Source of the DNA: an uncultured Planctomycetia bacterium
Lineage (GTDB): Bacteria > Omnitrophota > Gorgyraeia > Tantalellales > Tantalellaceae
Assembly (NCBI GenBank): GCA_964572255.1
Contig: CAZNEE010000001.1
Coordinates: forward strand, 139,520 to 203,519
Direction of reading: 5' to 3'
Length of the DNA: 64,000 bases
The translations under genes were made by a program, and so were the position numbers. Shown here in pieces: positions 1,648-54,455 of the stretch. Each line of letters starts with the position of its first letter. Within the stretch, counting starts at the first letter, position 1. Under the pieces are notes generated by a model. That model was given only the letters and a program-made list of their open reading frames with translations. It had not been told where the DNA came from and ran no database searches.

Positions 1648-3285
1648 ATGAACGTTCTTCTTGTTATTGGCTTAATTATGCTGCTCGGGGTGGTGAGCGG
1701 TAAGGTCTTTCAAAAACTTAATCTGCCCCAGGTAATGGGATATATTATAGTAGGCATACTTCTTGGTGAATCCTTTCAGGGAGTGATCAGCTGGGAGTTC
1801 CTTCAATCATTTAGCCCGTTCATCGATCTTGCGCTTGGAGTTATCGGTTTTCTGATAGGGGCGGAACTCAATTTCGACCGCTTCAAAAAATACGGTAAAT
1901 CAATATATACCATTCTTCTGGCCGAGTCTTTGATCACTTTTTTCCTTGTTGCGTTGGTTGCAACATTACTTACCGGTAAAGTATATATGGGGCTCATACT
2001 CGGGGCTTTGGCTTCCGCTACGGCACCGGCCGCTACATATAATGTCATCGGAGAATATAAAGCCCGCGGTCCGCTAACGATGACAACCCTTTCGATCGTT
2101 GCTTTGGATGACGGTGTTGCGCTTATCATTTACGGTTTTGCAAGCGCTTTCGCCAGGACCTTTATTGCGCATGAGAGCTTTTCGGTAATAACAACTATAG
2201 GATATCCTTTATTGGAGATCGCTTTCTCAGCTTTTATCGGCGCTGTTTCAGGTTTTGTGCTTCATAAGATCATACTGCGCGTAAGAGACAGAGAAAGAAT
2301 ACTTCCCATTACGTTCGGAACGATAATTTTTGTGGTCGGGCTTGCAAGGTTTTTTGACGTGGATGCGATCTTCGCGGCTATGATCCTTGGCGCCGTGGTT
2401 TCTACGCTTCAGACATCCGAACATCAGGAAATGTTCGATCTCATTAAACGGTTTAGTGCCCCGATATATGTGCTTTTCTTTGTTCTTGTAGGCGCCAGGC
2501 TTGATGCGAGGATATTTGCGAAAATAGGGGTTATTTCTCTTGCCGTGGCTTATATCATAGCCCGAAGTGTCGGAAAGCTTTCCGGTGCTTATATAGGAGG
2601 CAAAATATCGAAGGCTAAAGAAACCGTGACTAAATATCTTGGATTTTGCCTTTTCGATCAGGCCGGGGTTGCGGTCGGTCTTGCCATAGCTTCTTACAAT
2701 GTATTGAGCAAGATGGGCCCTGAAGCGCAAATGGCGGGCCTGCTCATAATTAACATTATAACCGCGACGACCTTTCTTCTGCAGATCATAGCGCCTCCGA
2801 TGATCAAATACGGAGTCAAGAAAGCCGATGAGATGTATCGTAATGTCACCGAAGAAGACATTATTCAAGAGTATAAGGTAAGAGATGTAATGGAAGAGGA
2901 TTTCTTCTTAATAAGAGAAAATAATAATCTTCATCAAATAATCGATATCATGAAAAAAAGCGACGGGTATATTTTTCCTGTTATAGGGATGGATGAAAAA
3001 TTCATCGGAGTGGTTTCGCTTGGAGAGATAAGAGATACATTTTACGAGGAACAAATGGATCAATTGATCCTGGCTGAAGACATTTACAGGGAAGTTGATA
3101 TTGTTGTTTATGCCGATCAGGAGCTTAAGGATGCAATGGATATATTCAAGGCTAAAAATATAGACTATCTTCCCGTATTGGAGAATAACCGGACAAAAAG
3201 GCTTGTGGGGCAGCTGGAATATAAAAAGATCAAGGAATTTATCAGCAGGGAAGTCATCCTCAGGCAGCAGGAACTCGAAACTTAA
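1648..3285 (+). CDS. Monovalent cation:proton antiporter (CPA/Kef-NhaP type) with C-terminal CBS-domain pair
   Basis: The N-terminal 400 aa are polytopic (MNVLLVIGLIMLLG..., GxxGxxxG-rich helices). The C-terminal soluble region resembles a CBS pair. Its ATG immediately follows the upstream stop (TAGATG), so the two genes are coupled. Confidence 0.8.
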   Translation: MNVLLVIGLIMLLGVVSGKVFQKLNLPQVMGYIIVGILLGESFQGVISWEFLQSFSPFIDLALGVIGFLIGAELNFDRFKKYGKSIYTILLAESLITFFLVALVATLLTGKVYMGLILGALASATAPAATYNVIGEYKARGPLTMTTLSIVALDDGVALIIYGFASAFARTFIAHESFSVITTIGYPLLEIAFSAFIGAVSGFVLHKIILRVRDRERILPITFGTIIFVVGLARFFDVDAIFAAMILGAVVSTLQTSEHQEMFDLIKRFSAPIYVLFFVLVGARLDARIFAKIGVISLAVAYIIARSVGKLSGAYIGGKISKAKETVTKYLGFCLFDQAGVAVGLAIASYNVLSKMGPEAQMAGLLIINIITATTFLLQIIAPPMIKYGVKKADEMYRNVTEEDIIQEYKVRDVMEEDFFLIRENNNLHQIIDIMKKSDGYIFPVIGMDEKFIGVVSLGEIRDTFYEEQMDQLILAEDIYREVDIVVYADQELKDAMDIFKAKNIDYLPVLENNRTKRLVGQLEYKKIKEFISREVILRQQELET

Positions 3286-5824: not shown

Positions 5825-6406
5825 ATGAAAAAGATCATTCTGGCTTCCGTTTCCGAAAGACGATCGCAAATCCTCACTTCATGCGGGGTTAAGCATGTTG
5901 TTATCGGCAGTAATATTGAAGAGCTGAAAAGCGGGTCTGTTTCAGAGGTCGTCCGGGTAAATGCCGAGAAAAAAGCGGAAAAAGCAGTTCAGGATTCCGG
6001 TGAAGCCGTTATTATCGGAGCTGATACTCTTGTCGCGCATGGCGAGGATATTATCGGAAAACCCCAGGACGAAAATGCCGCAAAAGATCTCTTGAAAAGG
6101 TTTTCGGGCAGCGATATCGAGGTGTATACAGGGCTTTGTGTAATAGACACGTCAAGCGGGAAGAAAGCATCGGGAGTTGATATGAGCGAGATAACAGTTG
6201 TTAGCATGACAGAGGAAAAAATCGAAAATTATTTCAAGTTGTTAGCCCCGTATGACAAGGCAGGGGGATTTTCTATAGAAGGCGTGGGCTCGCTTTTATT
6301 CGATAACATTAAGGGATCCTATTTCAACATATTAGGACTTCCCATGATCAAGCTTAACGAACTATTTAAAGAAATTGGATTAAATTTGTTAGAATTTTTA
6401 GCATAA
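5825..6406 (+). CDS. maf: Maf-like nucleoside triphosphate pyrophosphatase (septum formation protein Maf)
   Basis: ILASVSERRSQIL...IGADTLV...GLPMIKL signature; 193 aa. Confidence 0.85.
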   Translation: MKKIILASVSERRSQILTSCGVKHVVIGSNIEELKSGSVSEVVRVNAEKKAEKAVQDSGEAVIIGADTLVAHGEDIIGKPQDENAAKDLLKRFSGSDIEVYTGLCVIDTSSGKKASGVDMSEITVVSMTEEKIENYFKLLAPYDKAGGFSIEGVGSLLFDNIKGSYFNILGLPMIKLNELFKEIGLNLLEFLA

Positions 6407-6420
6407 AAAATCAATAAAAA

Positions 6421-7491
6421 ATGAAAAAACATTATACAATTCCATTTTTTATTCTGCATAAGGGATGCCCGTTCAAGTGCATATTCTGTGATCAGAATAG
6501 TATCACCGGGCAGGATATGATCAAGCCCGAGGATGTGGAAAAGGGTATTGAAGAATATCTTTCAACGATCCCGCCATCAGCGGAAAGGATCGAAGTCGGC
6601 TTTTTCGGCGGGACGTTTACCGGGCTGGATCCGGAACTTCAGAAAGAATTTCTCCGGCCCGTGCAAAAGTATATCCGGAAAGGCATTATCAAAGGCATCA
6701 GATTATCCACGCGTCCTGACTACATAAATAAAGAAACACTTAAGATGCTTAAAGAATATAGTGTGACTTGCATAGAACTTGGAGTGCAGTCCGCCTCAGA
6801 TAAAGTGCTTTTAGCCGCTAAAAGAGGGCATACAGCCGAAGATACGGAACGTGCTTCAGGAATGATACTGAATGAAGGTTTTATTTTGGCCCACCAGATA
6901 ATGCTGGGATTACCCGGAAGCAACAGGGAAGAAGAGTTCCACGCGGCAAAACGGTGCAAAGAATTGGGAGCGAAAGAAGTACGCATCTATCCGGTAATCG
7001 TCATCAAAGACACTGAACTTGCCGATCTTTGGCGGGAAGAAAAATATGAACCGCTTGATGAAGAAGAAGCTCTTTATCGCACTGCTATTATCATGCTCTA
7101 TTTGCAGGCTAATGATATTAAGGTCATACGGTGCGGATTGCACCCTTCTGAAGGGCTCATCGGAGGCAGCGGTTTTCTTGCCGGTCCGTTCCATCCCGCG
7201 TTCAGGCAAAAAGCCGAAAGCTTGATCTATTCGTTCGTGTTAGAGGCATTATTAAGAGAGCAAAGTTTGATAGATCGCATATCTTTTAACCCTGATGATG
7301 AAGGAGCGTTCTTCGGGTTTAAAGGTAAGAACTCCGGATTGATAAAAAGCCTTTTTCGTCCAAGAGAGGTTATTTTAAACAGGGATGTAAATATTCCCAA
7401 AGGAAGTTTGTACGTCTGGAGGAATGGGAAGATAGAAATGTTGGACAGAAAAAGCATAGCTAAGCGATGTAAAATGATTTGCGACTTTTAA
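6421..7491 (+). CDS. Radical SAM domain protein (ELP3-like / coproporphyrinogen-oxidase-like fold)
   Basis: CPFKCIFC (CxxxCxxC) near the N-terminus; 356 aa. Confidence 0.65.
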   Translation: MKKHYTIPFFILHKGCPFKCIFCDQNSITGQDMIKPEDVEKGIEEYLSTIPPSAERIEVGFFGGTFTGLDPELQKEFLRPVQKYIRKGIIKGIRLSTRPDYINKETLKMLKEYSVTCIELGVQSASDKVLLAAKRGHTAEDTERASGMILNEGFILAHQIMLGLPGSNREEEFHAAKRCKELGAKEVRIYPVIVIKDTELADLWREEKYEPLDEEEALYRTAIIMLYLQANDIKVIRCGLHPSEGLIGGSGFLAGPFHPAFRQKAESLIYSFVLEALLREQSLIDRISFNPDDEGAFFGFKGKNSGLIKSLFRPREVILNRDVNIPKGSLYVWRNGKIEMLDRKSIAKRCKMICDF

Positions 7492-22500: not shown

Positions 22501-22917
22501 GACGCTCCGGGAGGATGTTTAGTAGATTATTTTCTGCCGAGAGAAAAGGGCGAAGATATAGCGGTTTTCCAGGCAGTAACTGTAGGTTCACGCATAAACG
22601 ATGCGATAGAGAAACTATCCGGAGATAAGCAGGAGACGAAAGCTTTTTTCCTTCATGGATTAAGCGTGTATCTTGCAGAAGCTTTGGCGGCATATATACA
22701 TGACAGGATCCGCAAAGAACTTAATCTAAGCAAGAATCAGGGCAAGAGGTACAGCCCCGGATATCCCCTCTGGAAGGATCTCAGGGACCAGTCAAAGATT
22801 TTTAAGCTGTTAGAGATCGAAAGCAGGCTCAAAGTTACTCTTACACAAGAGCATCAAATGGTTCCCGAGCAGTCCACGACTGCCATGATCGTTTATGACA
22901 AAGCTGCAAGCTACTGA
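19519..22917 (+). CDS. metH: Cobalamin-dependent methionine synthase
   Basis: Hcy S-methyltransferase domain (GGCCGTDP), pterin-binding domain, B12-binding domain (GDVHDIGKN = DxHxxG) and the AdoMet activation domain. 1132 aa, start overlapping the batE stop. Confidence 0.9.
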   Translation: MKKTLRDKIKKETLLLDGAFGTYIQTFGLKQEDFKGRPGCLEHLNFTRPDLIEKLHSDYLDAGSDAVETNTFGANALKLSEYGLSDKVYEVNKEAARIARSACDKFSSSSHPRHVIGTMGPTGKLPSSTDPELGNVTYKELKRIFYEQALGIIDGGADALLVETGQDLLEMKAAVNGAKEALGENRKDLVLMAQCTLANNGRMLLGTEISAVSAALSYLDVDVIGLNCSTGPLEMEPAIKYLSSNCPKYISCVPNAGLPIEKDGKTFYPLAPDEMAEIISRFASEYKIDVVGGCCGTDPGYIRKIREKLKTSKKRKISRSGFYASFYKGYNLEEQDKPVKVGERINAQGSKKMKDLLLEKDYDSIVELGKDQQNKGASLLDVCAVLSERSTEKEDAVILVRRLSESVQVPLMIDSTDIEVIEAALSNYSGTAFINSVNLEDGGDRARRVFELAKEHGSFVINLMIDEKGMAKTSRHKLDIAKRLYNLATKEYGIEAHRLIYDMLTFALGTGEKEYANAALETCNAIKDFKKHHPEALTALGVSNVSFGLSKPARKVLNAAFLYHAVRSGLDLAIVDPSSDLNFENFPSEEKKLAEELVLNKRSDALERFIEYFAKKTPEKEERTEKAAELSIEESIKRCVIERNKAGILPLVDEALKKYKPERIINEILMDVMREVGDKLDTGEMVLPYVLQSAEVMRKAIEHLEKFLPKDREHKKGKVLLATVFGDVHDIGKNLVKMILKNNGFSVIDLGKQVPIEKIVKEAKKQKVDAVGLSALLVSTARHMKTCVQSMHDAGLHYPILIGGAPINERFAKEISALEDNTIYKGGVFYARDAFTGLKIMQALMDTDEKQKVQEEYYRQFKDKEKIIAPEEKRKVVKEDYTKKGTREVPTPPFYGIRSLTNIPADEVFGYLDERLLFEVGWKAKLKDPEEKERITREELQPLLKGLKEECLHKAWLDLKAAYGYFKCRIDGNDMEILDKKSKRIEVFHFERVKDAPGGCLVDYFLPREKGEDIAVFQAVTVGSRINDAIEKLSGDKQETKAFFLHGLSVYLAEALAAYIHDRIRKELNLSKNQGKRYSPGYPLWKDLRDQSKIFKLLEIESRLKVTLTQEHQMVPEQSTTAMIVYDKAASY

Positions 22918-22919
22918 TC

Positions 22920-22945
22920 GGGGACGCCCCACTCGGGGACACCCC
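22920..22945. repeat. GC-rich repeat GGGGACGCCCCACTCGGGGACACCCC, inverted partner of 23289-23314
   Basis: Exact reverse complement of 23289-23314; it sits directly after the metH stop. Confidence 0.7.
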
Positions 22946-23038
22946 GCAGCACAAAAAACATAAAATTTATACAAAAGTCTTGCTTCCTGTTTCATCTAAT
23001 AAAGCGCCAAAAATAGCCGCAGAAAAAGGAGGTTATTA

Positions 23039-23251
23039 ATGGCTGAATGTAAAATCAATGCCAATAAAAAAAACTGCAATTGTTCGTATGAACCTTGTTC
23101 GAAAAAAGGTGTATGCTGTGACTGCCTACAATATCATTTAAAAATGGGGCAGTTTCCCGCATGTTTATTCCCGGATGATGTTGAAAAAACATATGACCGC
23201 AGTATTGAACGATTTATAAAGACTTATCAGGAAAGAGGTTCCTGGTTCTAA
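23039..23251 (+). CDS. Small Cys-rich protein (70 aa, 8 Cys; putative metal-binding)
   Basis: [21 protein letters not shown]...; RBS AAAGGAGG 6 nt upstream; bracketed by the GC-rich inverted repeats. Confidence 0.5.
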
Positions 23252-23288
23252 CTGAAAAGGGCCCCGAATGGGGCGTTTCCAAAGGTGT

Positions 23289-23314
23289 GGGGTGTCCCCG
23301 AGTGGGGCGTCCCC
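23289..23314. repeat. GC-rich repeat (reverse orientation) GGGGTGTCCCCGAGTGGGGCGTCCCC, with an adjacent degenerate copy at 23268-23287
   Basis: Reverse complement of 22920-22945; a tandem ...GGGGCGTTTCCAAAGGTG / GGGGCGTCCCCAAAGGTG arrangement is visible. Confidence 0.7.
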
Positions 23315-23322
23315 AAAGGTGG

Positions 23323-25180
23323 TATGAAGAATTATTATGATGTTATAGTGGTTGGTGGGGGGCATGCCGGATGCGAAGCATCGCTTGCATCAAGCAGGAT
23401 AGGTGTGCGCGCACTTCTCATCACCATGAAGAAGGACGCGATCGGTTATACTTCCTGTAATCCCGCGATCGGCGGTATCGGCAAGGGGCAGCTTGTTAAA
23501 GAAATAGATGCGCTGGGCGGCGAGATGGCAAAAGCGGCAGATGCCAGCTGTATCCAGTACCGCATGCTCAATTCTTCCAAAGGGTACGCTGCGCGTTCAA
23601 GCAGGATGCAGATAGACCGTAAACTATACAACAATTACATGAAAGCTTGTCTGGGTAAACAGCCCGGATTAGATATTGTTGAAGATGAAGTCAAAGAGCT
23701 GGTCATTAAGAACAATTCTTGCCAAGGAGTTAAAACCGCCAAGGGAGAGATTTATAATGCCTCCTGCGTGATACTTACTACAGGCACTTACATGAACGGC
23801 ATCATTCATATAGGTCTTGAACATTTCTCAGGAGGGCGTATAGGCGAGGAAGCTTCAAGGGGATTATCAGATGATCTAAGAAGACTCGGATTCAATGTAA
23901 GCAGTTTAAAAACAGGTACTCCAGCAAGAATTGACGGCAGCACAATAGATTTTTCGGTTTGCACCAAGCAGGATGGAGACACTAGGATAATACCTTTCTC
24001 TTTCTCAACAAAAGAAATAACATTACCTCAAAAAAGTTGCTACATAACCAGGACTAATGAAAATACACATCGGATCATTCGTGAAGGATTAGACCATTCG
24101 CCGCTCTATACAGGTAAGATAAAATCCACGGGGGTGCGTTATTGTCCGTCAATTGAGGATAAAATAATAAGATTCCCTCAAAGAGATTCCCATATTGTAT
24201 TTATCGAGCCTGAAGGATTGGATACGGATGAATATTACCCCAATGGTGTATCTACAAGTTTGCCAAAAGACGTGCAGGAACGTATGTTACGCAGCATCAA
24301 GGGGCTAGAGAACGTAAAAATTAACACGCCCGCATATGGCATAGAATATGATTATGTCGATCCGACAGAGCTTTTTTCCACGCTTGAAGCTAAAAAGATA
24401 AGCGGGCTTTTTCTGGCCGGACAGATAAACGGGACGACCGGATATGAAGAAGCCGCTGCTTTAGGGCTAATGGCGGGGATAAATGCCGCCAGAAAAGTAA
24501 AGAAAGAGTCTTCCGTTATTTTGGATAGATCGCAAGGGTACATAGGCGTTTTGATAGATGATCTTGTCACAAAGGGCACAAAAGAGCCTTACAGGATGTT
24601 CACCTCACGCGTTGAATATAGACTTATCATTCGAGAAGACAATGCTGATACGAGACTTTCAAAGATAGGCCGGAAAGTAGGCCTAGTACCTGAAGAGCAA
24701 GTTGAACGTGTGCGGGAGGGGATCCAAAGAGTTCAAAAAGAAAGGCAGCGGCTGGAGAAAGAGTATTTGTATCCTGAAAAGAGAATAAACTCGTTTCTTG
24801 AAGAAAGAGGAGAATCTCCGTTAAGCGGCAAAATAAGTTTGGCTCAGCTCTTAAGAAGGTCCGGCATTTCTTATGACGATATTGTGCGCTTGGAGAAGGA
24901 AGACCGGAAGCTATCATATTATGAAAAAGTGCAGCTTGAAGTCGATATTAAATATTCCGGATATATTGAAAGGGAATCTTCAAGAATAAAAAAGTTTAAA
25001 GATCTTGAAAAAATACGCATACCCGGTAATTTTGATTACTCCGGGCTAAACAGCATTTCAAATGAGATAAAAGAGAAGCTCATGCATTTTAAACCGGCAT
25101 CGCTTGGTCAGGCATCAAGGATCTCAGGCGTAACGCCGCCAGCAATATCGATACTTATGGTAAAATTAAAGAACATTTGA
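23323..25180 (+). CDS. mnmG: tRNA uridine-5-carboxymethylaminomethyl modification enzyme MnmG (GidA)
   Basis: FAD motif [15 protein letters not shown] and the full-length GidA pattern. Start chosen at the ATG with an AAAGGTGG RBS; the track's upstream start at 23285 runs through the repeat. Confidence 0.9.
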
Positions 25181-26551: not shown

Positions 26552-29500
26552 ATGAAAAACGTGGGAAAGTTAAAAATAATAAAAGTCATATCTATCATTG
26601 TGCTCATCACATTTTCTTTTCAGAATATTACATGGGCAAATCCTGATATTTTCCAATCTCGCAGTATTGTTGCCGGGCAGCACATGGCCGTAATGGGCTA
26701 TGGGCGCCAGTATGGCTTTAATCTGGCCGCTATGATGTGTTTTGCAAAGATCGGAAATGAATTTTTTGCGAATATCCTCAAAAACGAATTACCTCCGGAT
26801 CATGAAAGATGGGATGAACATCATCAATATCTGGTCAAAGAGGTCAATGAATATATCAATACTTCACCGCACATATTAAGCCAAATAAAAAGGGATGTTA
26901 CCAGGCGCGATATTTCTTTTGACGGGGAAACATTAAAGATCAAGTATAAGAACGTTGAGGGTAAGGAATTTATTGTTTGCCTGGCAAGGGGCGTAAACGA
27001 TAAGCCGGGGCAGTATGAGATAATTAACGGTATCCCGCAGATCGACGGTATTTTGGTGGAGTTCCGGGATCCATTGGATAAAGCTCAGGATACAAGGCAA
27101 GACAAAGTGATCAAAAAAGACGGGGATGCGGTCAAACCTTCAGATGTTTCTGATGAGACAAAAGCCGATAACGAACAGGACCAAAAAAATGATATTGAAG
27201 GAAAAACAGATCTACGCGATGGTTTTACAAGGATCGAACTTCTCAGTGCGGTTGCCGCTGCGGGCTTAATTCTTCCTATTGTAGTCAGTTACCCGACACT
27301 GCTATTACCGATATTAATAGCTTCTATTAGTTCGTTGATTCTCACTTTGGCATATTATTATTCATTTCCTTTATTTAAGGACCTTATCGGAAAAATCTCC
27401 TTGAGAAATCCTTTTATTTTCACCGAGCTTGCCGGTACGGGTATAAAAGTTCCTTCAGGACTGCAGTTGCCGGTACTTTTTGCCGCGCCTGATGACAATA
27501 AGGGTAAAGGCGGAAAAGGGGAGCAAAAGCCGCAGGGCAAAAAGCCAGTTCCTGTCGGAAAGAAAAAGGGCAAAGTGGTAGCAAGACCGGCAAAGAAAAA
27601 AGTGTTTTTAGACAATCGATCTCTTTTAAACACTCTTTTAAGGCATGCGAGGATTTTTAACGTAAAAAATAGAGAACAAGCCGAACAAAAACTTGAAGAG
27701 ATTTTAAGCAGCCTTTCAATGACGATGAAACCGCAGGGAGGAGTTTCTACCAGTGTAAAAGATATAGGAGATGTATTAAGGGATCTCAACGGCCAAGGTA
27801 ATGTATTTTTCCGCGATGTCAAGCATAGATCCACAGCCGGCCATAAGGGAAGATCTTCTTCCAGCAGCCGTACCGGATATAAATATTTTGACCGTTTGGT
27901 CGATAACCGCGTTTTTCAGGACAGGATAAAAAGAACACTCAGTACAGTGAGATTTTACATGGGGAATAATCCCACAATTTTCGGCCAGCCCAGAAGATTG
28001 TCCAGGGTATATTTCGGATCAAGTACCGGATATTTTGATGTGAGGGATAACCTGCAGTATGCTCATGTTGTCGATATTGTTGTTTTAGTTGACGGAAAGT
28101 CGCATATCAAGCCTGTTGCTGATATTCCCAAGACCCGAGAAGAGATCGAAGAGGCTTTTCATGAATTCAGGAATGTCCGGAAAATAAATGTCGAGGTTGT
28201 AGGATTCGATGAACTTGAGGCTGCTGTACAAGGGGACCCAAGCTTGCCTATAGAAAGGATCGAGCATTTGCGCACGCTGCTTATAAAAATTTACAGAGAA
28301 TATGTGCAGATCGCAGGTTCAAGCCTTGTGAAGGAAAATAACGAGGAAATTTTCAGTGAAAGGCTTAAATTGCTCGAGATAGCTTATGTAAACAGACTTG
28401 TCCGGGAGCTTAATGAATTTGCAGGCAAAAAAGAGAAGCTGAGAGAAGCGCATGAAAAAAAAGAAGACGAGAGAGTTCAATTGCCGATTAAGCGCAGAGA
28501 GAATTTAAAGAAAGCAAATGAAGAACTGGGGAGCATTGAAATGCGGATCGAAGAGCTTGAGGTGCAAGCATCTTCATTGTTCGGGACAACTGATCTAACG
28601 GCCATCGATCAGAAAGTTGCGGAAGAGTTGCCTATGTTGTCAGCTAAATGGAATGAGGCCTATATAAGAGAAGGAGGCGAGGGGGGCAAGGCAAGCATTA
28701 AAAATCCGCAGAAACATGTGGAGTATCAACAGATTTATGAGCAATATCAGGAAAAACAGGGATTACTTAACGCTCTAAAAAATCTGCATAAGGAAAAAAT
28801 AGCGATCGAAGAAAAAATAAAAGAAGTCAGGGGCAGTACAAGCGGAAAAGTCGAAGAGATTAATGACCAGTTAAAGCAAATAAGATTGGAAATAGAAGAA
28901 ACAGAAAGGAATTATGAACTTTTGTGTAAACGCATAGAAGACGCGATGTACGGCCAAACGTATATAACGCCGGGAACTGTTATAGGCGGTAAATATCAGA
29001 TAGTCAGTGAACTTGAAAAAGGCGGTTTCGGGATAGTTTATAACGCAAAATATATACCTTCATATGTGGAACAAAGCATTGATGACCGCGAGCGTGAGAG
29101 GATGAGGAATGCGGAATTAGCTATAAAATTCTTTGTCCCGGCGATCGCTCTTTCTGAAAGACAGCGTGAAGTCGCGGAAAAAAGGTTTTTAAATGAAAGG
29201 AAGACTCACAAAGAATTGTCGGAGGACAGCGCGCCTATTCCTATGTTTAGAGACGAAGGAGAGTATGCTGATTTACATTATCTGGTGATGGATAGAGTGC
29301 CTTTAAAAGGAAAAGGAATGACCCTTGATAAGATCATCGCGGAAATAGAGGCCGGACATATTAAGTTAGATTATCGCCAGAAAGTTATTTTATATTGGGC
29401 AATAACTAAAAGGCTCAGAAAATTTCATGGTAAAGGGGGGATCCATAGAGATATTAAGCCGGCACAGTTTATGATACCTATGGCTGAGGATGGATCGCTT

Positions 29501-32500
29501 GTTATCCCGAGTATTGACACACCGGCATTCGACGATTTTGTTGATGAAATTTATCTTCTTGATATGGGAACGGTCAAAAAGGGGAAACAAACAGACGATG
29601 GGGATGCTTTTGTTATGGGGGATCTTTTAGATGTTTCTCAGCAGTTAACCCAGCAGGCAAAATCACTTCCGTTCTCTCCTTCGTATATGTCACCTGAGAC
29701 AGTCGAACTTCTTTATAGCTTTGACGATAGTTCAAAATCAAAGGGCGAAAAAACCATAATAACATTCTCGGATGGGAAAGAGTCCGCTGCGCCAGATGGT
29801 GAAAGCGTCGAGGTTGCCGAGGTCGTCGAGGAAGAGCAATCCCATCAAAAGCCAAAAGTCACCCTTGGTACACCAACTGATATATATTCCTGGGGGGTTT
29901 CAGGTTATGAACTTTTTACAACAGAACTCACAACAAGCGGCGCGAAGAACCCGGTCGCCATAATGGGCGAGGTTTTGAACAATGAGGTGGAGTCTCCGCG
30001 AAGGGTTATTGCAAGATTGAACAGGGCGATGGAACCTAATGCAAAGACACCAAGAGAGGTCTTAGATAAGATTCATGCCAATTTATATAAGATCTTATCA
30101 AGCGAAAAGGATCCTGCCAAGAGGGTTGTCATTAAAAGCAATGACCCGAAGGATGTTGTGTGGGACGAGGTTATTGTGCGGGGGAACGAGGAAAATTTAA
30201 GAGATCGCCTGGAGGATATATTATGGCAAGATGATTCTCTTTTTGATTTGGGTTTAATGAGTTCAGATGAAACCGCAGTCGAATCCATAATAAACAGGCT
30301 TTGCAATAATATTACATATCTTGTTTTCCCGAGAATACCGCAAATGGACGAACACATGGAATTATTGCTTCTTAAATGTCTTGAGAAAGATCCTGAAAAT
30401 CGCCCTTCAGTAAAAGTCTTGGATGACGAGATAGATAAGTTGCTTCATAACAGGCAAGAGGCCATGATCTATCAGCCGGCAGGCGAAGCAAGCTGGGGCA
30501 CCCGTTTTGGTAAGTGGGTCGAACGTAATGCAAAATTAGCTTTAACGTTAGCCGGTGTGATCATACTTACTCTGGTTACTGCAGTGGTGGGTTTAGTGGT
30601 TTATTTTGATCAAAAAACCACCACGTTGAACGAAGCTGCCGAAAAAGCGGAAGCCGCGAGAACAAGAGCCGAAAGACAAACGAGAGAAGCCGAGACGGCG
30701 CAAAAAACACTTGCAGAGGAAAAGGACAAGCTTACTCAGGAGAAGGAAAAATTCGAAAAAGAAGTTGAAAGGAAGAACGAGGAATTGGCCGATAAAGAAA
30801 AACTGTTAGCCGCGAAGGATATTGAGATCAGGAAAAAGAGGGAAGAATTGTTAAAAATGCAGAAAGAGCTGGACGCAAAGACCAAACAGGTGGAAGAGGT
30901 AGCGAAGCAGCTGGCGGAGTTTGAAAAGAAAAAAGGTATTTACGCCAAGGACATCGATAATCTGACGGAAAAAAAAGGAAGCCTTCAGGAATCCATGAAA
31001 GAGATGACCCTGGCGATGAAGAAACTTGAAGAGGATAAGAAGCGGCTTCTTATCGATAAAAAGAACCTTGAGGAAGAGAAGAAAAAACTCGAAGAGGAAA
31101 AAGAAGTTCTCGCAAGGAAGTTCAAAGAGCTCAGCGAAAGCGTCCCGGGCATTTTTGAGGAGGCTAAAAAGCTGGCAAGAAATTATGAAGACGAAGAAGC
31201 TTTCGAAGCTTTAGCTAATCTGCCGCATTGGGGCATTGACAACGAAGAGAGCCTCGCGAAATTAACCCTCGGTTTTGACGAAGTGTTCAAGATATTCGTG
31301 GACAACGGACAATTCAATGAGGCTGTAAAGTTGGAAGAAGTCAGAAGGGATCTTTTCAGATTCGGCTTCAGTAAACTGGAGACGGAAGCATCAAAGAAGA
31401 CCTTTGAAAGCGAGATCAATGCGGTAAAAGCCATGTTGGCGGCGGGGTATCATGATAAAGCCATGAGCCAGACCGTCAACCTGATGGAAAAAACAATATA
31501 TAAAAATTCCAAAGAATGGATGGAGATATTAAAGGGTCTGTTCGCGGGAATAGTGATCGAGCATGCATATTATGAAAAGGATGCCCAGAAAAGAACCGAC
31601 AGGATAAACAGCGCGAAGGCCCTGATAGATGAGACCGGCAGCGAGGATGAAAGATATTTCCGTTTTGCCGGCTTTTATATGGTCTCAGGGGATTACGCAG
31701 CAGCGGCCAAATACTATAAAAGGTATTGTGACCACTGGGCGGAACAGGCTAAAGAAAAAGACATAGCCGAAGACGTTAAGAAAAACAGGCTCGAAAAAGC
31801 TTCATATGGCTTGATCTCGAGTGCCGTGGCCCATCTAAAAAGAGCGGAGGCCGCAAAGAGCAAAGATAAAAAGGAAGTAGCTGAATATGCGATGAAAATA
31901 CTCCAGGAGTGGGAGAAATCCTATACCGAACAAAAAGAGCACTTGGCATGGGCCAATTTCGTAAAAGGCGAATTGTACGTACTGATGAAAGAACGGGACA
32001 AGGCCGAGGAAGCCTATAATGGGTCCCTTAAACTTGCGAATGAAAATGGCCTGAAAGTTATTATCGCTTTATGTGAAGCGAGATTGGGGCAAGAGGTCAA
32101 GTTCAGCGATCTGTTAAATACGTGGACGACTTTTATTTCAAGCGAAGTGCCCCTGCCTTTTAGGGCGGAAATAAGAAGTATCTTGAGAAGCGCGACAACA
32201 AAATACCGGTCCGAACTTCAAAAAGCCAAACGTGAAGCCGAGGAAGAAAAAAGGAAGAAAGAGGAAGAGGAGCGGAGAAAAAAAGAAGCAGAGGAAAAGA
32301 TCCAGGGCAAACTTCTTGAGGATATAAAATGGCCGAAAGAGATCGATATCAAACTCATTCAGATAAATAAGGGGATACAGACTCTTACTCGCAATAAAGG
32401 GTTCGGAGATAAGCAGCAGAGGAATGATGCTGAAAAACAGCTTGCCAAGCTTATGGAAGAAAAAGAAAAACTGGAAGCGAAAAAAGCTAAATATTTAACG

Positions 32501-33280
32501 CAAGAACCACTCAAAGCATCAACGGGCGGACCGATGGCAGTAGTTTTCAGTTTAAACATTTTGTTAGGAGTTGTGACAAGTCTTGCGAAAAGCTTATCTA
32601 GTAAATTTCCAAAACTTTCTGGATATAGCGAAGAAGATAAGGGTAAAGGGTTGATATTATTTGCCGATGATATGATATATGCTGATAAAGAAGTGGATTA
32701 TTCTGCTGTATTTGATCTGGATAAACTTGCAAAAACTATAGGGGAAGAAGGTTCTTCTTTGATCGGTAAGATAGTAATTTATGCGGAAAATATCAATAAG
32801 GCAAAAATACTGGAGACAATTATAAAAACAGCCAATAAAAATGCTGTCGTGGAAATAGTAACAAGCGATAAGCTTGTGGCGAGCAATAATGGAGATTGCC
32901 GAGAATCGACAATTAAAGACTTATTAGAGTATTGCAGACATCCGAAGAACGGCATTGGGTTCAAAAGTCATAAAGATGTGCTCGGCATAATACGCGGGCG
33001 TCTTTCGGAGAAAGAAAAACAAAAATTGGAAATAGAATACAGAAGCACTGCTCATAAGATACCGCCCATAGTTGAATTTGTAGAGATAAAAAAGGGAAAC
33101 GTTTATTCGATTATGGAAGCTGTAAATATACTTATTAACCAGCTTGATCCGGAAAAGAGACAAGATGTCAGCTCTTTAGTTATACTTGCGCTCAAACCGA
33201 TAGTAAAAATGTCTGAAACCTTACAGGAAGAATATAATAAATATATCCATCAGGTCATGGCTCTCGAAAGCGCCGCGTAA
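26552..33280 (+). CDS. Giant (2242 aa) multidomain membrane protein with an embedded Ser/Thr protein kinase-like domain, long coiled-coils, a TPR-like helical region and a Lys-rich segment
   Basis: Uninterrupted 6.7-kb ORF. Hanks motifs are present: GxGxxG (EKGGFGIVY), AIK (ELAIKFF), catalytic loop HRDIKPAQ, a DFG variant (LLDMGTV), an APE-like SPE (YMSPE) and DIYSWGVSG. There are hydrophobic segments at residues 1-28, 225-275 and 1330-1352, and heptad-rich stretches such as KEKEKFEKEVERKNEELADKEKLL... Confidence 0.8.
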   Translation: MKNVGKLKIIKVISIIVLITFSFQNITWANPDIFQSRSIVAGQHMAVMGYGRQYGFNLAAMMCFAKIGNEFFANILKNELPPDHERWDEHHQYLVKEVNEYINTSPHILSQIKRDVTRRDISFDGETLKIKYKNVEGKEFIVCLARGVNDKPGQYEIINGIPQIDGILVEFRDPLDKAQDTRQDKVIKKDGDAVKPSDVSDETKADNEQDQKNDIEGKTDLRDGFTRIELLSAVAAAGLILPIVVSYPTLLLPILIASISSLILTLAYYYSFPLFKDLIGKISLRNPFIFTELAGTGIKVPSGLQLPVLFAAPDDNKGKGGKGEQKPQGKKPVPVGKKKGKVVARPAKKKVFLDNRSLLNTLLRHARIFNVKNREQAEQKLEEILSSLSMTMKPQGGVSTSVKDIGDVLRDLNGQGNVFFRDVKHRSTAGHKGRSSSSSRTGYKYFDRLVDNRVFQDRIKRTLSTVRFYMGNNPTIFGQPRRLSRVYFGSSTGYFDVRDNLQYAHVVDIVVLVDGKSHIKPVADIPKTREEIEEAFHEFRNVRKINVEVVGFDELEAAVQGDPSLPIERIEHLRTLLIKIYREYVQIAGSSLVKENNEEIFSERLKLLEIAYVNRLVRELNEFAGKKEKLREAHEKKEDERVQLPIKRRENLKKANEELGSIEMRIEELEVQASSLFGTTDLTAIDQKVAEELPMLSAKWNEAYIREGGEGGKASIKNPQKHVEYQQIYEQYQEKQGLLNALKNLHKEKIAIEEKIKEVRGSTSGKVEEINDQLKQIRLEIEETERNYELLCKRIEDAMYGQTYITPGTVIGGKYQIVSELEKGGFGIVYNAKYIPSYVEQSIDDRERERMRNAELAIKFFVPAIALSERQREVAEKRFLNERKTHKELSEDSAPIPMFRDEGEYADLHYLVMDRVPLKGKGMTLDKIIAEIEAGHIKLDYRQKVILYWAITKRLRKFHGKGGIHRDIKPAQFMIPMAEDGSLVIPSIDTPAFDDFVDEIYLLDMGTVKKGKQTDDGDAFVMGDLLDVSQQLTQQAKSLPFSPSYMSPETVELLYSFDDSSKSKGEKTIITFSDGKESAAPDGESVEVAEVVEEEQSHQKPKVTLGTPTDIYSWGVSGYELFTTELTTSGAKNPVAIMGEVLNNEVESPRRVIARLNRAMEPNAKTPREVLDKIHANLYKILSSEKDPAKRVVIKSNDPKDVVWDEVIVRGNEENLRDRLEDILWQDDSLFDLGLMSSDETAVESIINRLCNNITYLVFPRIPQMDEHMELLLLKCLEKDPENRPSVKVLDDEIDKLLHNRQEAMIYQPAGEASWGTRFGKWVERNAKLALTLAGVIILTLVTAVVGLVVYFDQKTTTLNEAAEKAEAARTRAERQTREAETAQKTLAEEKDKLTQEKEKFEKEVERKNEELADKEKLLAAKDIEIRKKREELLKMQKELDAKTKQVEEVAKQLAEFEKKKGIYAKDIDNLTEKKGSLQESMKEMTLAMKKLEEDKKRLLIDKKNLEEEKKKLEEEKEVLARKFKELSESVPGIFEEAKKLARNYEDEEAFEALANLPHWGIDNEESLAKLTLGFDEVFKIFVDNGQFNEAVKLEEVRRDLFRFGFSKLETEASKKTFESEINAVKAMLAAGYHDKAMSQTVNLMEKTIYKNSKEWMEILKGLFAGIVIEHAYYEKDAQKRTDRINSAKALIDETGSEDERYFRFAGFYMVSGDYAAAAKYYKRYCDHWAEQAKEKDIAEDVKKNRLEKASYGLISSAVAHLKRAEAAKSKDKKEVAEYAMKILQEWEKSYTEQKEHLAWANFVKGELYVLMKERDKAEEAYNGSLKLANENGLKVIIALCEARLGQEVKFSDLLNTWTTFISSEVPLPFRAEIRSILRSATTKYRSELQKAKREAEEEKRKKEEEERRKKEAEEKIQGKLLEDIKWPKEIDIKLIQINKGIQTLTRNKGFGDKQQRNDAEKQLAKLMEEKEKLEAKKAKYLTQEPLKASTGGPMAVVFSLNILLGVVTSLAKSLSSKFPKLSGYSEEDKGKGLILFADDMIYADKEVDYSAVFDLDKLAKTIGEEGSSLIGKIVIYAENINKAKILETIIKTANKNAVVEIVTSDKLVASNNGDCRESTIKDLLEYCRHPKNGIGFKSHKDVLGIIRGRLSEKEKQKLEIEYRSTAHKIPPIVEFVEIKKGNVYSIMEAVNILINQLDPEKRQDVSSLVILALKPIVKMSETLQEEYNKYIHQVMALESAA

Positions 33281-51410: not shown

Positions 51411-51986
51411 ATGCCGGAACTAAAAGGAACGCAAACTGAAAAAAATCTTCTTGCATCTTTTGCGGGAGAATCTCAAGCAAGGAACCGCTACACTTATTTC
51501 GCTTCCGCAGCTAAAAAGGAAGGGTACGAACAGATAGCTGCGATTTTTCTTGAGACCGCGGAGAATGAAAAGGAGCATGGTAAGAGATTTTTTAAGTTTT
51601 TAAAAGGCGGAGATGCTGAAATAACAGCCACTTACCCGGCGGGCGTTATAGGCAAAACCGCCGAAAACCTTAAAGAAGCCGCTGACGGCGAACGGCTTGA
51701 ATGGGGAACTCTTTACAAGGATGCCGCGAAAACCGCGCTTGATGAAGGTTTTGAAGAGATCACGGAACTTTTCAAAAATATAGCCGCGGTTGAAAAAGAA
51801 CACGAAGCGAGATACCGTAAACTATTGGCAAATCTCGAGGGAGGCAGCATATTCAAAAAAGATCAGCCTGTCAAGTGGAGATGCCGCAATTGCGGATACG
51901 TGCATGAAGCTCAAGAAGCCCCCAAAACTTGCCCGGCATGTTTACATCCGCAGTCATATTATGAACTCCTAGTTGAGAATTATTGA
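51411..51986 (+). CDS. rbr: Rubrerythrin
   Basis: Diiron ferritin-like helices (E..H motifs) plus a C-terminal rubredoxin-like domain (CRNCGYVHE...CPAC). Confidence 0.9.
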   Translation: MPELKGTQTEKNLLASFAGESQARNRYTYFASAAKKEGYEQIAAIFLETAENEKEHGKRFFKFLKGGDAEITATYPAGVIGKTAENLKEAADGERLEWGTLYKDAAKTALDEGFEEITELFKNIAAVEKEHEARYRKLLANLEGGSIFKKDQPVKWRCRNCGYVHEAQEAPKTCPACLHPQSYYELLVENY

Positions 51987-51988
51987 TC

Positions 51989-52558
51989 ATGAAGGTTCTT
52001 GGCATAAGCGGAAGTCCCCGAAAAGGCGGCAATTCGGATGTTTTGCTTGAAAAGGCGCTGGAAGGCGCCAGGTCAAGCGGGGCAGAGACAGAGATCATCT
52101 ATTTACGGGATCTGAATTTTTCACCGATCCAAGAAGAAGAATATGAAAAAGTCAATGATGATGGCCTTTCTGTCATTGATGATGATATGCAGCTGGTCTT
52201 TAAAAAGATAGATGAAGCTGGCGTTCTTATCCTGGCCTCGCCTATCTTTTTCGGCAGTCTTAGTTCGCAGGCCAAAATGATGATAGACCGTTTTCAATGC
52301 GTATGGCTGGCCAAAAATATTTTCCATAAAGAGATCTTTACTGAAACAAAGAAGGGGGCATTTATCTCTGTTGAAGCAACGACAAGAGATGATTTTTTCC
52401 AAAGCGCCAAGTCTATTGTAAGGCATTTCTTCGCGACAATAAACATGCATTACGAAGATGAACTGTTCTGCCCGGGGATAGATAAAAAAACCGGTGCGGC
52501 AGAGCATCCTGAATATTTAGAAAAAGCGTTTGAACTGGGCAGGAATATAGTTTCATAA
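51989..52558 (+). CDS. NAD(P)H-dependent FMN reductase / flavodoxin-like oxidoreductase
   Basis: MKVLGISGSPRKGGNSD N-terminus typical of NADPH-dependent FMN reductases and iron-sulfur flavoproteins. Confidence 0.7.
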   Translation: MKVLGISGSPRKGGNSDVLLEKALEGARSSGAETEIIYLRDLNFSPIQEEEYEKVNDDGLSVIDDDMQLVFKKIDEAGVLILASPIFFGSLSSQAKMMIDRFQCVWLAKNIFHKEIFTETKKGAFISVEATTRDDFFQSAKSIVRHFFATINMHYEDELFCPGIDKKTGAAEHPEYLEKAFELGRNIVS

Positions 52559-52588
52559 GAGTTTGAGGGCTGATGAAATGGAGGGAAC

Positions 52589-53089
52589 ATGGGGAAAAGT
52601 TTTTCGGGTTGTGAGATCATCGAGATCGCGATCCAGATAGAGAAGAACGGGATAGATTTTTACAACGGGTTGATCGAAATGTCCAAGCATGATAAAGCCA
52701 AGGAAGTCTTTAAGTATTTGGCCCAGCAGGAAGAAGAGCATATAAGGATCTTTAAGGGAATTTTTGACCCAAAATGCTCATATGAGCCTCAAGGCGCTTA
52801 TCCGGACGAATATTTCGCGTACATGAACGCTCTTGCCAGCGGCTATATCTTCACTAAAGAGAATAAAGGTAAAGAGATCGCCTCCGGAGTAAAAAACGAT
52901 AAAGAAGCGATCGATCTTGGGATCAAGTTTGAAAAAGAGTCTATACTTTTTTATGAAGGGATGAGAAAGATCGTTCCTGATAAGGATCAGCAGCTGCTTG
53001 AGAGAGTTATCAATGAGGAAAAGGAACATCTTAAAAAACTATGCGAACTAAAAGGGGACGTGCCAGTCGGGGACACCCCATGTGCTTGA
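52589..53089 (+). CDS. Ferritin-like diiron protein (rubrerythrin-family, no rubredoxin domain)
   Basis: Two EExH-containing helices (QQEEEHIRIF, NEEKEHLKKL). The C-terminal residues are encoded by the GC-rich repeat. Confidence 0.6.
   Translation: MGKSFSGCEIIEIAIQIEKNGIDFYNGLIEMSKHDKAKEVFKYLAQQEEEHIRIFKGIFDPKCSYEPQGAYPDEYFAYMNALASGYIFTKENKGKEIASGVKNDKEAIDLGIKFEKESILFYEGMRKIVPDKDQQLLERVINEEKEHLKKLCELKGDVPVGDTPCA
53054..53079. repeat. GC-rich repeat GGGGACGTGCCAGTCGGGGACACCCC
   Basis: Same family as 22920-22945; it overlaps the 3' end of the ferritin-like gene. Confidence 0.7.
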
Positions 53090-53143
53090 AATAGATTTAA
53101 AAATATAATTTTTATCTGAAATTGAGAGGGGTGGGAAGGTATA

Positions 53144-53386
53144 ATGAGCAAAAAAGTTTTTATATACAGTACTCCGACATGTCCGTTCTGCAGGAAGACA
53201 AAACAATTCCTACAGGACAATAATATTGAATTTACTGATTATGATGTATCCAGTGACCATGCAAAAGCTGAAGAAATGGTGCAGAAGTCTGGGCAGATGG
53301 GAGTGCCCGTTCTCGATATAGAAGGCGAGATCGTAGTTGGTTTTGATAAGGAAAAAATAGAAAAATTGTTAGATCTTTACGCTTAG
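53144..53386 (+). CDS. Glutaredoxin-like protein (CPFC active site)
   Basis: VFIYSTPTCPFCRKTKQFL...GVPVL..; 80 aa. Confidence 0.8.
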   Translation: MSKKVFIYSTPTCPFCRKTKQFLQDNNIEFTDYDVSSDHAKAEEMVQKSGQMGVPVLDIEGEIVVGFDKEKIEKLLDLYA

Positions 53387-53412
53387 GGGACGTGCCATGG
53401 GGGGGACACCCC
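53386..53412. repeat. GC-rich repeat GGGGACGTGCCATGGGGGGGACACCCC (overlaps the grx stop codon)
   Basis: Same repeat family; it forms an inverted pair with 53483-53508. Confidence 0.7.
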
Positions 53413-53482
53413 GCAAGGTTAAATTAATTCGTTTTTTTGGCATTTTAAGGGATTTTTAAAAATTTGGTTAGTTTTGTGTTGA

Positions 53483-53508
53483 GGGGTGTGCCCCCATGGC
53501 ACGTCCCC
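53483..53508. repeat. GC-rich repeat (reverse orientation) GGGGTGTGCCCCCATGGCACGTCCCC
   Basis: Its reverse complement matches the 53386-53412 copy; about 70 bp of AT-rich spacer lies between them. Confidence 0.7.
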
Positions 53509-53525
53509 GATTGAGCAAGTTTAAT

Positions 53526-54455
53526 ATGGCTAAGATTTACGATCTGATCATAGTCGGCGCAGGGCCGGCAGGAATAACCGCAAGCGTTTATGCCGCTCGC
53601 AAAAGAATGGATTTTATCGTGCTTACGGGAGACATCGGGGGACAGGCGGCCTGGAGCGGTGATATAGAGAATTACACGGGTTACCAGTTCATTACCGGCC
53701 CCGAACTCGCAGCGAAATTTGAAGAACATATGAAAGAATACGGCGTCGAGGTCAAGGAAGGCGAAGAAGTCAAGGAACTTTGGAAAGAGGATGATATTGT
53801 TCATGTCAAGACAGGGCAAGACGAATATCTTTCCCGGACAGCGATAATAGCTTCAGGAAAAAAGTCAAAAGAACTTGAAGTGGCCGGGGAGAAGGAATTC
53901 AAGAATAAAGGCCTTACATATTGCGCAACGTGCGATGGGCCGTTGTTTTCAGACAAGGAAGTGGCCGTTATAGGCGGCGGTAATTCCGCTCTTGATGCCG
54001 TACTGCAGCTTACCAAAATAGCCAAGAAGATCCACATTATAAACAATATACCTGAACTTGGAGGCGATCAGATAGTGAGGAAAAAGGCGGAAGAAAGCGA
54101 TAAAGTGATCGTGCATAATAATTCCGAGGTAACTGCCGTTCTCGGAGAAAAATTTGTCAGTGCCATCAAGATCAAAAAGGACGGGAAAGAAGAGACCATA
54201 TCTGTTCAGGGAGTTTTTGTTGAAATAGGCCTGATACCCAATTCGGATTTTGTCAAAAATCTTAAAAAAAATGATAATAATGAAATAAAGGTTAGTTGTT
54301 CAAACGAGACCAATGTGGCCGGTATTTTCGCCGCAGGTGATGTTACGGATGTTCCCGAAAAACAGATAATCGTAGCTGCCGGGGACGGCGCAAAAGCTGC
54401 ATTGAGTGCGTTCAGGTATATTTCCAGGACTAGTATGGAATCCGTAAATTGGTGA
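53526..54455 (+). CDS. trxB: Thioredoxin-disulfide reductase
   Basis: FAD motif YDLIIVGAGPAG, redox-active CATCDG, and the NADPH motif GGGNSA. An alternative upstream ATG at 53496 lies inside the repeat. Confidence 0.85.
   Translation: MAKIYDLIIVGAGPAGITASVYAARKRMDFIVLTGDIGGQAAWSGDIENYTGYQFITGPELAAKFEEHMKEYGVEVKEGEEVKELWKEDDIVHVKTGQDEYLSRTAIIASGKKSKELEVAGEKEFKNKGLTYCATCDGPLFSDKEVAVIGGGNSALDAVLQLTKIAKKIHIINNIPELGGDQIVRKKAEESDKVIVHNNSEVTAVLGEKFVSAIKIKKDGKEETISVQGVFVEIGLIPNSDFVKNLKKNDNNEIKVSCSNETNVAGIFAAGDVTDVPEKQIIVAAGDGAKAALSAFRYISRTSMESVNW

Follow-up and report, generated by a model that had tools for sequence, protein, structure and literature searches.

REP/REPIN-RAYT systems combine repetitive extragenic palindromic (REP) sequences, their hairpin-forming doublets (REPINs) and REP-associated tyrosine transposases (RAYTs). 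The reference systems are the REPs and bacterial interspersed mosaic elements (BIMEs) of Escherichia coli with the transposase TnpA-REP, and the REPINs of Pseudomonas fluorescens. They reportedly go back to work by Bertels & Rainey in 2011, Nunvar in 2010 and Ton-Hoang/Messing in 2012, and to our knowledge have been studied almost only in Proteobacteria. In PMC3116915, PMC3337134, PMC5581495 and PMC3733652, such a system is defined by extragenic palindromes that form inverted doublets, lack target-site duplications (TSDs) and lie beside a TnpA-REP-like gene. Here we describe a repeat family that we encountered in a stretch of 64,000 nucleotides (the window: contig CAZNEE010000001.1, positions 139,520 to 203,519) from an uncultured bacterium of the Omnitrophota, where two inverted 26-nt repeats enclose a small gene of the DUF6485 family between metH and mnmG. 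We assign the family to the REP/REPIN-RAYT systems because it consists of extragenic palindromes, forms inverted doublets, leaves no TSDs and flanks a TnpA-REP-like gene. The family, carried mainly by Omnitrophota, is a new member of these systems, neither a gene cassette nor a regulatory operator, and the 26-mers of the window are very probably REPs of this family which were inserted in the spacers around a resident DUF6485 gene. Among the papers searched, none was found that links REP/REPIN-RAYT to Omnitrophota.

The likeness to the reference systems covers both the repeats and the enzyme. The repeats are 26-nt imperfect palindromes, mostly extragenic, and occur as inward-facing doublets with a short spacer and without TSDs; inverted copies flank a Y1/HUH gene that is closest by sequence to E. 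coli TnpA-REP, and the repeat sequence co-varies with the transposase lineage. Unlike the classical systems, this one is hosted by Omnitrophota (together with Aminicenantes-labelled and other metagenome-assembled genomes, MAGs) and not by Proteobacteria, its unit is made of two GGGG-N3-CCCC mini-palindromes with invariant ends (GGGGACG outside, GGGGACACCCC inside), and its core stays constant while the RAYTs that go with it share only 44-54% identity. It also lacks the terminal GTAG at which the E. coli RAYT cleaves. Some described REP families likewise have no GTAG, according to PMC3733652, so the present one stands outside the GTAG super-family and not outside the REPs.

With the CGTC-tagged REPs of Di Nocera et al. 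2013 (PMC3733652) the family shares short palindromes that are mainly head-to-head dimers, and the invariant GACG near its outer end reads CGTC on the other strand. In that paper the CGTC of those REPs is terminal, their stems open with A/T pairs, and a dedicated transposase could not be identified. Compared with this description, the repeat studied here has three more C/G after the motif, stems of G/C only and an associated transposase.

The repeat pair between metH and mnmG

The left repeat (GGGGACGCCCCACTCGGGGACACCCC, REP copy 1L) occupies 22920-22945 of the + strand, and its exact reverse complement (REP copy 1R) lies at 23289-23314 on the - strand. The coordinates and sequence of this pair, as given in an initial annotation of the window made from the letters alone, were reproduced, and the expected number of chance matches to the 26-mer was 0.00 in dinucleotide-preserving shuffles with 3 mismatches allowed. 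Measured from 22920 and 23314, the inverted arms extend to 29 nt with 97% complementarity, the left arm running to 22948 and 337 nt remaining between the two. The 343 nt between the 26-mers have a GC content of 37.6%, as compared with 42.3% for the whole window; judged from the window, the genome is only moderately AT-rich. The placement relative to the neighbouring genes was also as first annotated: the metH stop codon (TGA, 22915-22917) precedes the left repeat by 2 nt, and the right repeat ends 9 nt upstream of the probable mnmG start codon, ATG 23324, from which it is separated by a Shine-Dalgarno-like AAAGGTGG.

Each 26-mer is composed of two dyad-like GGGG-N3-CCCC units 15 bp apart, in agreement with the mini-palindromes of the initial annotation. 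As single-stranded DNA (ssDNA), copy 1L is predicted to form an imperfect hairpin with an outer GGGG/CCCC and an inner CCCC/GGGG stem closed by a tetraloop (-9.1 kcal/mol, z -1.9). Single 26-mers of the family, with an inner stem of 4-5 bp and a loop of 4-5 nt inside the outer GGGG/CCCC, gave values of -8 to -9 kcal/mol with z of about -2, which is weak for one copy, and the common variant GGTCC-TAAA folds poorly alone (-4 kcal/mol, z about 0).

The inner flank of copy 1L (GCAGCACAAAAAACATAAAATTTAT, 22946-22970, +) resembles the stretch TGAGCAC(G/A)AAA...AAAATTT, which is conserved for about 25 nt inwards of the repeat in several genomes (positions +26 to +50, 77 copies); the window's left copy has GCAGCACAAAAAACATAAAATTTA at the conserved position. 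Because of this resemblance a length of about 50 nt is probable for the repeat unit, which would correspond to one arm of a REPIN. Beside copy 1R we observed a decayed tandem copy (GGAAACGCCCCATTCGGGGCCC, 23259-23280, - strand), which was delimited by pairwise alignment with the intact copy and its flank; both are preceded by CACCTTT. A degenerate tandem copy had been noticed here before, and it is real, with the correction that its coordinates had been shifted: the 18-mers at 23270-23287 and 23304-23321 are the ends of two tandem whole-repeat copies, and the whole decayed copy is the one given above.

The repeats are not intrinsic terminators, as had been stated initially, since neither is followed by a T/U tract and a terminator scan was negative at both. 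Likewise, scans for sigma-70 promoters and terminators scored no higher at the repeats than expected from shuffled sequence. The TGAGCAC inner flank was also considered as a sigma-54 promoter, a reading dropped on visual inspection, since the -24 box lacks its GG. No match at the gathering threshold of Rfam 15 was obtained in the window and none at E<=1 for 22850-23400. Integron attC sites, CRISPR and DNA-uptake sequences were rejected as well, there being no unique-spacer array and no integrase, and the density being far too low.

The dispersed family and its associated transposases

For the genome scan we used one genome per species and the pattern GGGGACGNNCCN{3,6}GGGSACACCCC, which matched at least 113 stretches in species-representative genomes. 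The family was found in more than 35 assemblies, single hits in actinomycetes of >70% GC being set aside, which bears out the initial suggestion of a dispersed repeat of the mobile-element type. The hosts are mostly Omnitrophota/Omnitrophica or third-party (TPA) MAGs named 'uncultured Planctomycetia', with few carrying Aminicenantes or other labels; the NCBI labels of TPA MAGs are unreliable. Many contigs per assembly carry copies (CAZAPM, CAZWMG, CAZBMI, JBDRDF). Dispersed copies were counted at no fewer than 9 loci in CAZWMG and no fewer than 15 in CAZAPM, both of them RAYT-carrying genomes; these and all further copy and pair counts in other genomes were made among the matches listed and are lower bounds.

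A strong preference for one arrangement was seen among neighbouring copies within 3 kb of each other (2 mismatches allowed): 39 of 47 were inward-facing ('+ then -'), as against 5 in '++' and 3 in '-+' order, the last all about 2 kb or more apart. The spacers of 33 of these 39 inward-facing pairs measure 5-169 nt, i.e., the pairs are REPINs. None of the 39 had identical flanks of 3 nt or more, and the search for TSDs proposed in the initial annotation was negative also at the DUF6485 locus, where the flanks read TGATC (22915-22919) and AAAGG (23315-23319). Of 132 copies, 84 fall outside open reading frames (ORFs) on an admittedly crude map, which with 10.6% non-ORF bases is an enrichment of about 6-fold. 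There was no preference for either end of genes, with 33 copies at 5′ ends vs. 38 at 3′ ends.

Results of the searches around the repeats in other genomes link the family to a transposase. Inward-facing copies fully bracket an ORF of about 200 aa at four loci, each from a different assembly (L044, L073, L099, L103), and a homolog of this ORF, detected by tblastn, adjoins a copy at two more (L021 and L094), being either incomplete or at the edge of the locus there. The repeat-flanked ORFs match Pfam Y1_Tnp (IS200-like) with E values of 1e-11 to 1e-19, and the best NCBIfam model for the L044 and L099 proteins is that of the REP-associated tyrosine transposase (REP_Tyr_transpos, 68.8-68.9 bits). 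A single RAYT sequence had no match in the PDB, and only a profile of five sequences did, with E. coli TnpA-REP (4ER8) as the best match (E 1.1e-5), ahead of ISDra2 TnpA. The HUH histidines H60 and H62 are invariant, and so is Y120 in the motif RYIERNP, which aligns to Y115 of 4ER8, presumably the catalytic residue of that enzyme. More distant RAYT relatives are flanked by variant inverted repeats of their own, many of which have GGGAC/GTCCC cores (e.g., GGGGACGTTCCCCAAGGTGCCACCC). A constant core combined with transposases diverged to about 45-55% identity in many uncultivated lineages would make the family suitable for studying the co-evolution of REPINs and RAYTs.

The absence of TSDs and the type of enzyme also separate the family from, or join it to, other small elements. 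Insertion sequences (IS) of the IS200/IS605 group have a transposase of the same Y1 HUH fold family, carry subterminal hairpins that are recognised in single-stranded form, and likewise leave no TSDs. Their ends are direct, however, and the whole IS is multi-copy, whereas here the flanking hairpins are inverted and the short repeats dispersed; the transposase profile, too, is closer to TnpA-REP than to the ISDra2 enzyme. Correia elements are miniature inverted-repeat transposable elements (MITEs) of Neisseria with 26-bp terminal inverted repeats (TIRs), whose transcribed hairpins are cleaved by RNase III; they duplicate a TA target and presumably rely on a transposase of the DDE type. The present repeats are similarly small and intergenic with 26-bp inverted ends, but lack TSDs and go with a Y1-type enzyme. 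The 38-bp inverted repeats of the Tn21 type share with the repeat a terminal GGGG and, at a similar position, the inner motif AGCACG. An origin from the Tn3 family was rejected, there being no 5-bp TSD and the associated transposase being of the Y1 type.

In the mechanism that we propose, a RAYT would recognise the ssDNA hairpin of the 26-mer, cut it and rejoin it, and the single-strand mechanism of HUH/Y1 enzymes would copy the repeats into intergenic DNA without duplicating the target. One copy entered just past the metH stop codon and another, with the now decayed tandem copy, just before mnmG; 1L and 1R face inwards, in the geometry also seen around RAYT genes. Further copies entered an operon of rubrerythrin-like, grx and trxB genes. 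By analogy with the genomes in which repeat and transposase adjoin, the copies of the window would have been made by a RAYT of its own genome.

Several observations weigh against this interpretation. The 68.8-68.9 bits obtained with the NCBIfam RAYT model fall below its 80-bit equivalog cut-off, and the repeat ends in an invariant GGGGACG in place of the GTAG of classical REPs. No RAYT gene was detected in the 64-kb window by tblastn, the three candidate RAYTs in the database whose source patterns are similar derive from other samples, and the window holds only 5 intact copies and 1 decayed one. In addition, the arms of 1L and 1R are identical at 26 of 26 positions, vs. 24-25 of 26 in the three RAYT-flanking pairs that were measured, and independent old insertions would not predict such identity. 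It may be the result of a recent insertion of a master sequence, of local copying or of selection for pairing. A profile search returned 4008 RAYT relatives, none of them on the window's contig; many RAYT matches are on contigs of 1-3 kb.

Two side observations concern the family elsewhere. At the loci of assembly CAZAPM01 (L021, L023, L040, L046, L050, L055, L077, L105, L115) the outer half of the repeat is reiterated, with 2-4 tandem 15-bp units (GGGGACGCYCCTAAA) before the terminal inner motif, resulting in longer arms with a variable number of units. The 5′ leaders of RAYT genes (L127 ~1985-2020, L210 ~2950-3000, L214 ~2950-3000, L217 ~280-328) share the motif ...GTTAGATTT(C/T)CCCTCCT...N~20...AGGAGGGA(A/T)TTTTATG, a predicted pairing of anti-Shine-Dalgarno and Shine-Dalgarno sequences that would occlude the ribosome-binding site. 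This resembles the translational control of IS200 tnpA. Pattern matches in Micromonospora and Streptomyces were treated as unrelated, as they have coding-like conserved flanks or occur singly in genomes of >70% GC. Those in Micromonospora (L012, L016, L022, L026, L032, L048, L052, L062, L092) all represent a single 28-nt stretch (GGGGACGTACCGGTGCTGGGCACACCCC), conserved together with its flanks, which presumably belongs to an orthologous coding region and has no relation to the REPs.

Genes enclosed and altered by the repeats

The ORF between 1L and 1R (23039-23251, +) encodes 70 aa with 8 Cys and has AAGGAGG 6 nt before its ATG, which confirms the small 8-Cys gene with a good ribosome-binding site reported initially. 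It matches Pfam DUF6485 (E 2.8e-9). The protein has 723 database relatives at E<=1e-5. Even those from MAGs with an Aminicenantes or Elusimicrobiota label share about 70% identity with it, and in twelve diverse members neither the eight Cys nor His33 varies. The gene order BatD-TPR-metH-DUF6485-mnmG-radical SAM is retained in the two closest lineages, in which DUF6485 is 89% and 84% identical. At the same time, the metH-DUF6485 and DUF6485-mnmG spacers of these relatives (L122-L125) are without a copy of the window's repeat, and its inner core (GGGGACACCCC, 1 mismatch allowed) occurs nowhere in the 6-12 kb loci of the two lineages. Since the order metH-DUF6485-mnmG is kept in relatives without the repeats, we regard DUF6485 as a resident gene that, on the evidence of gene order, is not the cargo of a mobile element. 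Alignment of the spacers with those of the relatives gave only rough insertion points, the intergenic DNA being too diverged.

The initial annotation had instead likened the locus to a TIR-bounded, MITE-like insertion or cassette with DUF6485 as cargo. A variant of this reading is a RAYT-mobilisable unit with the geometry of a REPtron, in which the cargo replaces the transposase. Perfect 26-bp inverted repeats around one small gene are what such an insertion would show, their geometry matches REP(+)-RAYT-REP(-) units, and other non-transposase genes, namely a macro-domain gene (L046) and an Lrp/AsnC gene (L055), are bracketed in the same way. However, the cassette appears largely refuted by the conserved order in repeat-free relatives. 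DUF6485 is widespread and strongly conserved across phyla, it stands in another gene context without repeats at L126, and TSDs are missing both at the locus and family-wide. The inner flanks of the two arms differ as well, the left being of REPIN type and the right a decayed REP. Among eight conspecific contigs, obtained from eight samples, the arrangement is constant, the sequence being identical or different at one base outside the repeats, and there is thus no presence/absence polymorphism. The comparison with empty sites, suggested initially as a check, revealed relatives that keep DUF6485 in place and lack only the repeats. We consider a cassette, in either form, highly improbable. A repeat unique to these loci and a flanked segment conserved in all relatives had been named beforehand as arguing for a regulatory site over a mobile cassette, and the two parts diverged: the repeat is not unique, which favours a mobile repeat, and the segment is conserved in relatives, which counts against a cassette.

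The window 26-mer is also carried by the JGI contigs Ga0180438_10006560, Ga0180433_10017906 and Ga0180437_10026940, which were identified by protein look-up. An exact scan of a metagenome contig collection for the 26-mer gave 0 matches and is uninformative, because the collection is incomplete with respect to these three contigs. Downstream, the public gene call for mnmG (631 aa, from GTG 23285) reads through copy 1R, by which the repeat adds 13 codons. Starting at ATG 23324, mnmG has 618 aa, vs. 611 and 591 aa in relatives, and judging by these lengths and the preceding Shine-Dalgarno-like sequence this ATG is probably the true start.

The same repeat family occurs a second time in the window, with three copies at 53054-53079 (+), 53386-53412 (+) and 53483-53508 (-). 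The first (REP copy 2A, GGGGACGTGCCAGTCGGGGACACCCC) falls within a rubrerythrin-like ORF (52589-53089), at its 3′ end, where the last 11 codons derive from the repeat. The protein runs to ...ELK and ends with the repeat-encoded tail GDVPVGDTPCA, and its Pfam domain stops exactly at the start of the repeat. The protein of a relative (L207) ends in ...DLKKVLES without any repeat and is followed by a 13-nt spacer to grx. As the domain ends at the repeat and the relative has none, the insertion of 2A rewrote the C-terminus and moved the stop codon.

The glutaredoxin gene grx (53144-53386, +, 80 aa) is bracketed by copies 2A and 2C, arms which are 85% complementary, and its TAG stop codon shares its G with copy 2B. 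Copies 2B (53386-53412, +) and 2C (53483-53508, -) face inwards across a 70-nt AT-rich spacer and form a REPIN (53386-53508) between grx and trxB; the 139-nt grx-trxB spacer of the window holds this 123-bp doublet. As ssDNA the REPIN is predicted to form a hairpin of -35.9 kcal/mol (z -7.95), and against Rfam 15 it gave only sub-threshold plant miRNA-precursor hairpins (<=30.7 bits vs. gathering 100). The relative L207, whose glutaredoxin is 79% identical, has a compact and repeat-free operon with a grx of 78 aa, a spacer of 34 nt and trxB. As relatives keep the gene order without the repeats at both loci, the repeats are lineage-specific insertions into conserved gene arrays. Copies are more alike within a cluster of the window than between the two (GCCCC-A(C/T)TC in cluster 1, GTGCC-A.. 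in cluster 2), which may point to two sub-families, to local copying or to selection for pairing, with only two clusters to judge from.

Since both clusters bracket small Cys-containing or redox genes, we also considered that the repeats are operator sites of a transcription factor for thiol or Cys-rich redox genes (DUF6485, glutaredoxin, thioredoxin reductase, rubrerythrin-like), much as the initial annotation had offered paired protein-binding sites. The two dyad-like units of the 26-mer, 15 bp apart, would suit such a role. Elsewhere, however, in dozens of genomes, the motif adjoins a wide variety of unrelated genes, mainly in the form of tight hairpin pairs, and it flanks its own transposase gene. 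The lack of a bias towards 5′ gene ends is contrary to an operator function, as is the overlap of copies with stop codons and coding 3′ ends; moreover, neither the orthologous redox operon of L207 nor the DUF6485 loci of L122 and L124 contain the motif. An operator function is hence very hard to credit. For this locus the main value of the finding is a negative one, namely that neither a gene cassette nor a regulatory operator is present. There are also consequences for annotation (mnmG calls with 13 extra codons, a rewritten C-terminus of the rubrerythrin-like protein, overlapped stop codons), and the repeats may help to fragment assemblies.

The second cluster lies in an oxidative-stress array (51411-55081) that comprises genes for rubrerythrin, a 191-aa ORF, the rubrerythrin-like protein, glutaredoxin, a thioredoxin-reductase-like protein and a 210-aa ORF. 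The array is largely syntenic with L207, which adds a desulfoferrodoxin and a flavodiiron-type gene upstream, and the 210-aa ORF occupies the position of the relative's Ogg-type glycosylase.

RNA folding and palindromes in related spacers

As summarised in PMC12306157, transcribed 3′ hairpins of E. coli REPs protect the upstream mRNA from exonucleases, and a hairpin a few nucleotides from the stop codon can stall terminating ribosomes. The window copies are in stop-codon-proximal positions, after metH, after grx and inside the rubrerythrin-like ORF, and by analogy may act on RNA as the E. coli REPs do.

The initial annotation had proposed RNA folding as a check, and in the RNA of 22905-23335 the arms are predicted to pair in both the minimum free energy (MFE) and the centroid structure (-158 kcal/mol, z -8.3). 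If metH, DUF6485 and mnmG are one transcript, a 29-bp duplex would enclose the DUF6485 cistron and the Shine-Dalgarno sequence of mnmG would be at the foot of the helix. In this model the 29-bp helix would be a plausible RNase III substrate. The processing stems that RNase III cleaves around rRNAs offer a comparison. The REP pair could thus have been co-opted as an RNA stem, with RNase III or sequestration excising or insulating the DUF6485 cistron and setting the 5′ end of mnmG and the accessibility of its ribosome-binding site. This would be a secondary function, compatible with the REP origin of the repeats.

Apart from the predicted pairing, such a co-option is favoured by the 100% identity of the arms over 26 nt, which no other pair with a spacer of more than about 170 nt shows, and by their position, both being outside the ORF and the right one ending just before the mnmG start. 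The bracketing of grx, an unrelated 37-nt inverted repeat (92% complementary) around a 117-aa ORF in the DUF6485-mnmG spacer of L122, and two 85-nt palindromic elements flanking DUF6485 in L124 point in the same direction. On the other hand, any inward-facing REP pair folds in this way by construction, relatives manage without these repeats, and the 8 population contigs are all identical and offer no covariation to read. Nor is there an orientation bias among gene-sized pairs when RAYT loci are left out (3 '+-' vs. 2 '++'). We regard a co-opted stem as unlikely. Somewhat fainter still is the more general notion that inward REP pairs around small genes are retained as RNA stems, or that the enclosed gene is excised or copied by a RAYT; retention is hinted at because bracketing recurs, at DUF6485, at grx, around the 117-aa ORF of L122 and with the elements of L124.

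The palindromes in the same spacers of relatives are unrelated to the REP family, which suggests that the metH/DUF6485/mnmG spacers are at least permissive landing sites. In the closest relative (L122, also L123) the metH-DUF6485 spacer contains a 54-nt hairpin of AAGAC-type units (5924-5977). Its 37-nt inverted repeat (6216-6252 and 6829-6865) is made of TAGCATGT-type units and encloses a segment of 576 nt between DUF6485 and mnmG, in which the 117-aa ORF belongs to no known family. The 85-nt elements of L124 (5751-5835 and 6250-6334, also in L125) are 96% identical, in direct orientation and of the form GGGGTGTATTCCGTGCTCAGA...CACACCCCC, with a 28-nt direct repeat (AAAAACAGCTCGAAGCGGTGGC...) nearby.

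Elsewhere in the window, an ORF of 2242 aa follows a 310-nt spacer in the region 26552-33280. Nearly all genes of the window are on the + strand, and the GC skew is positive throughout.

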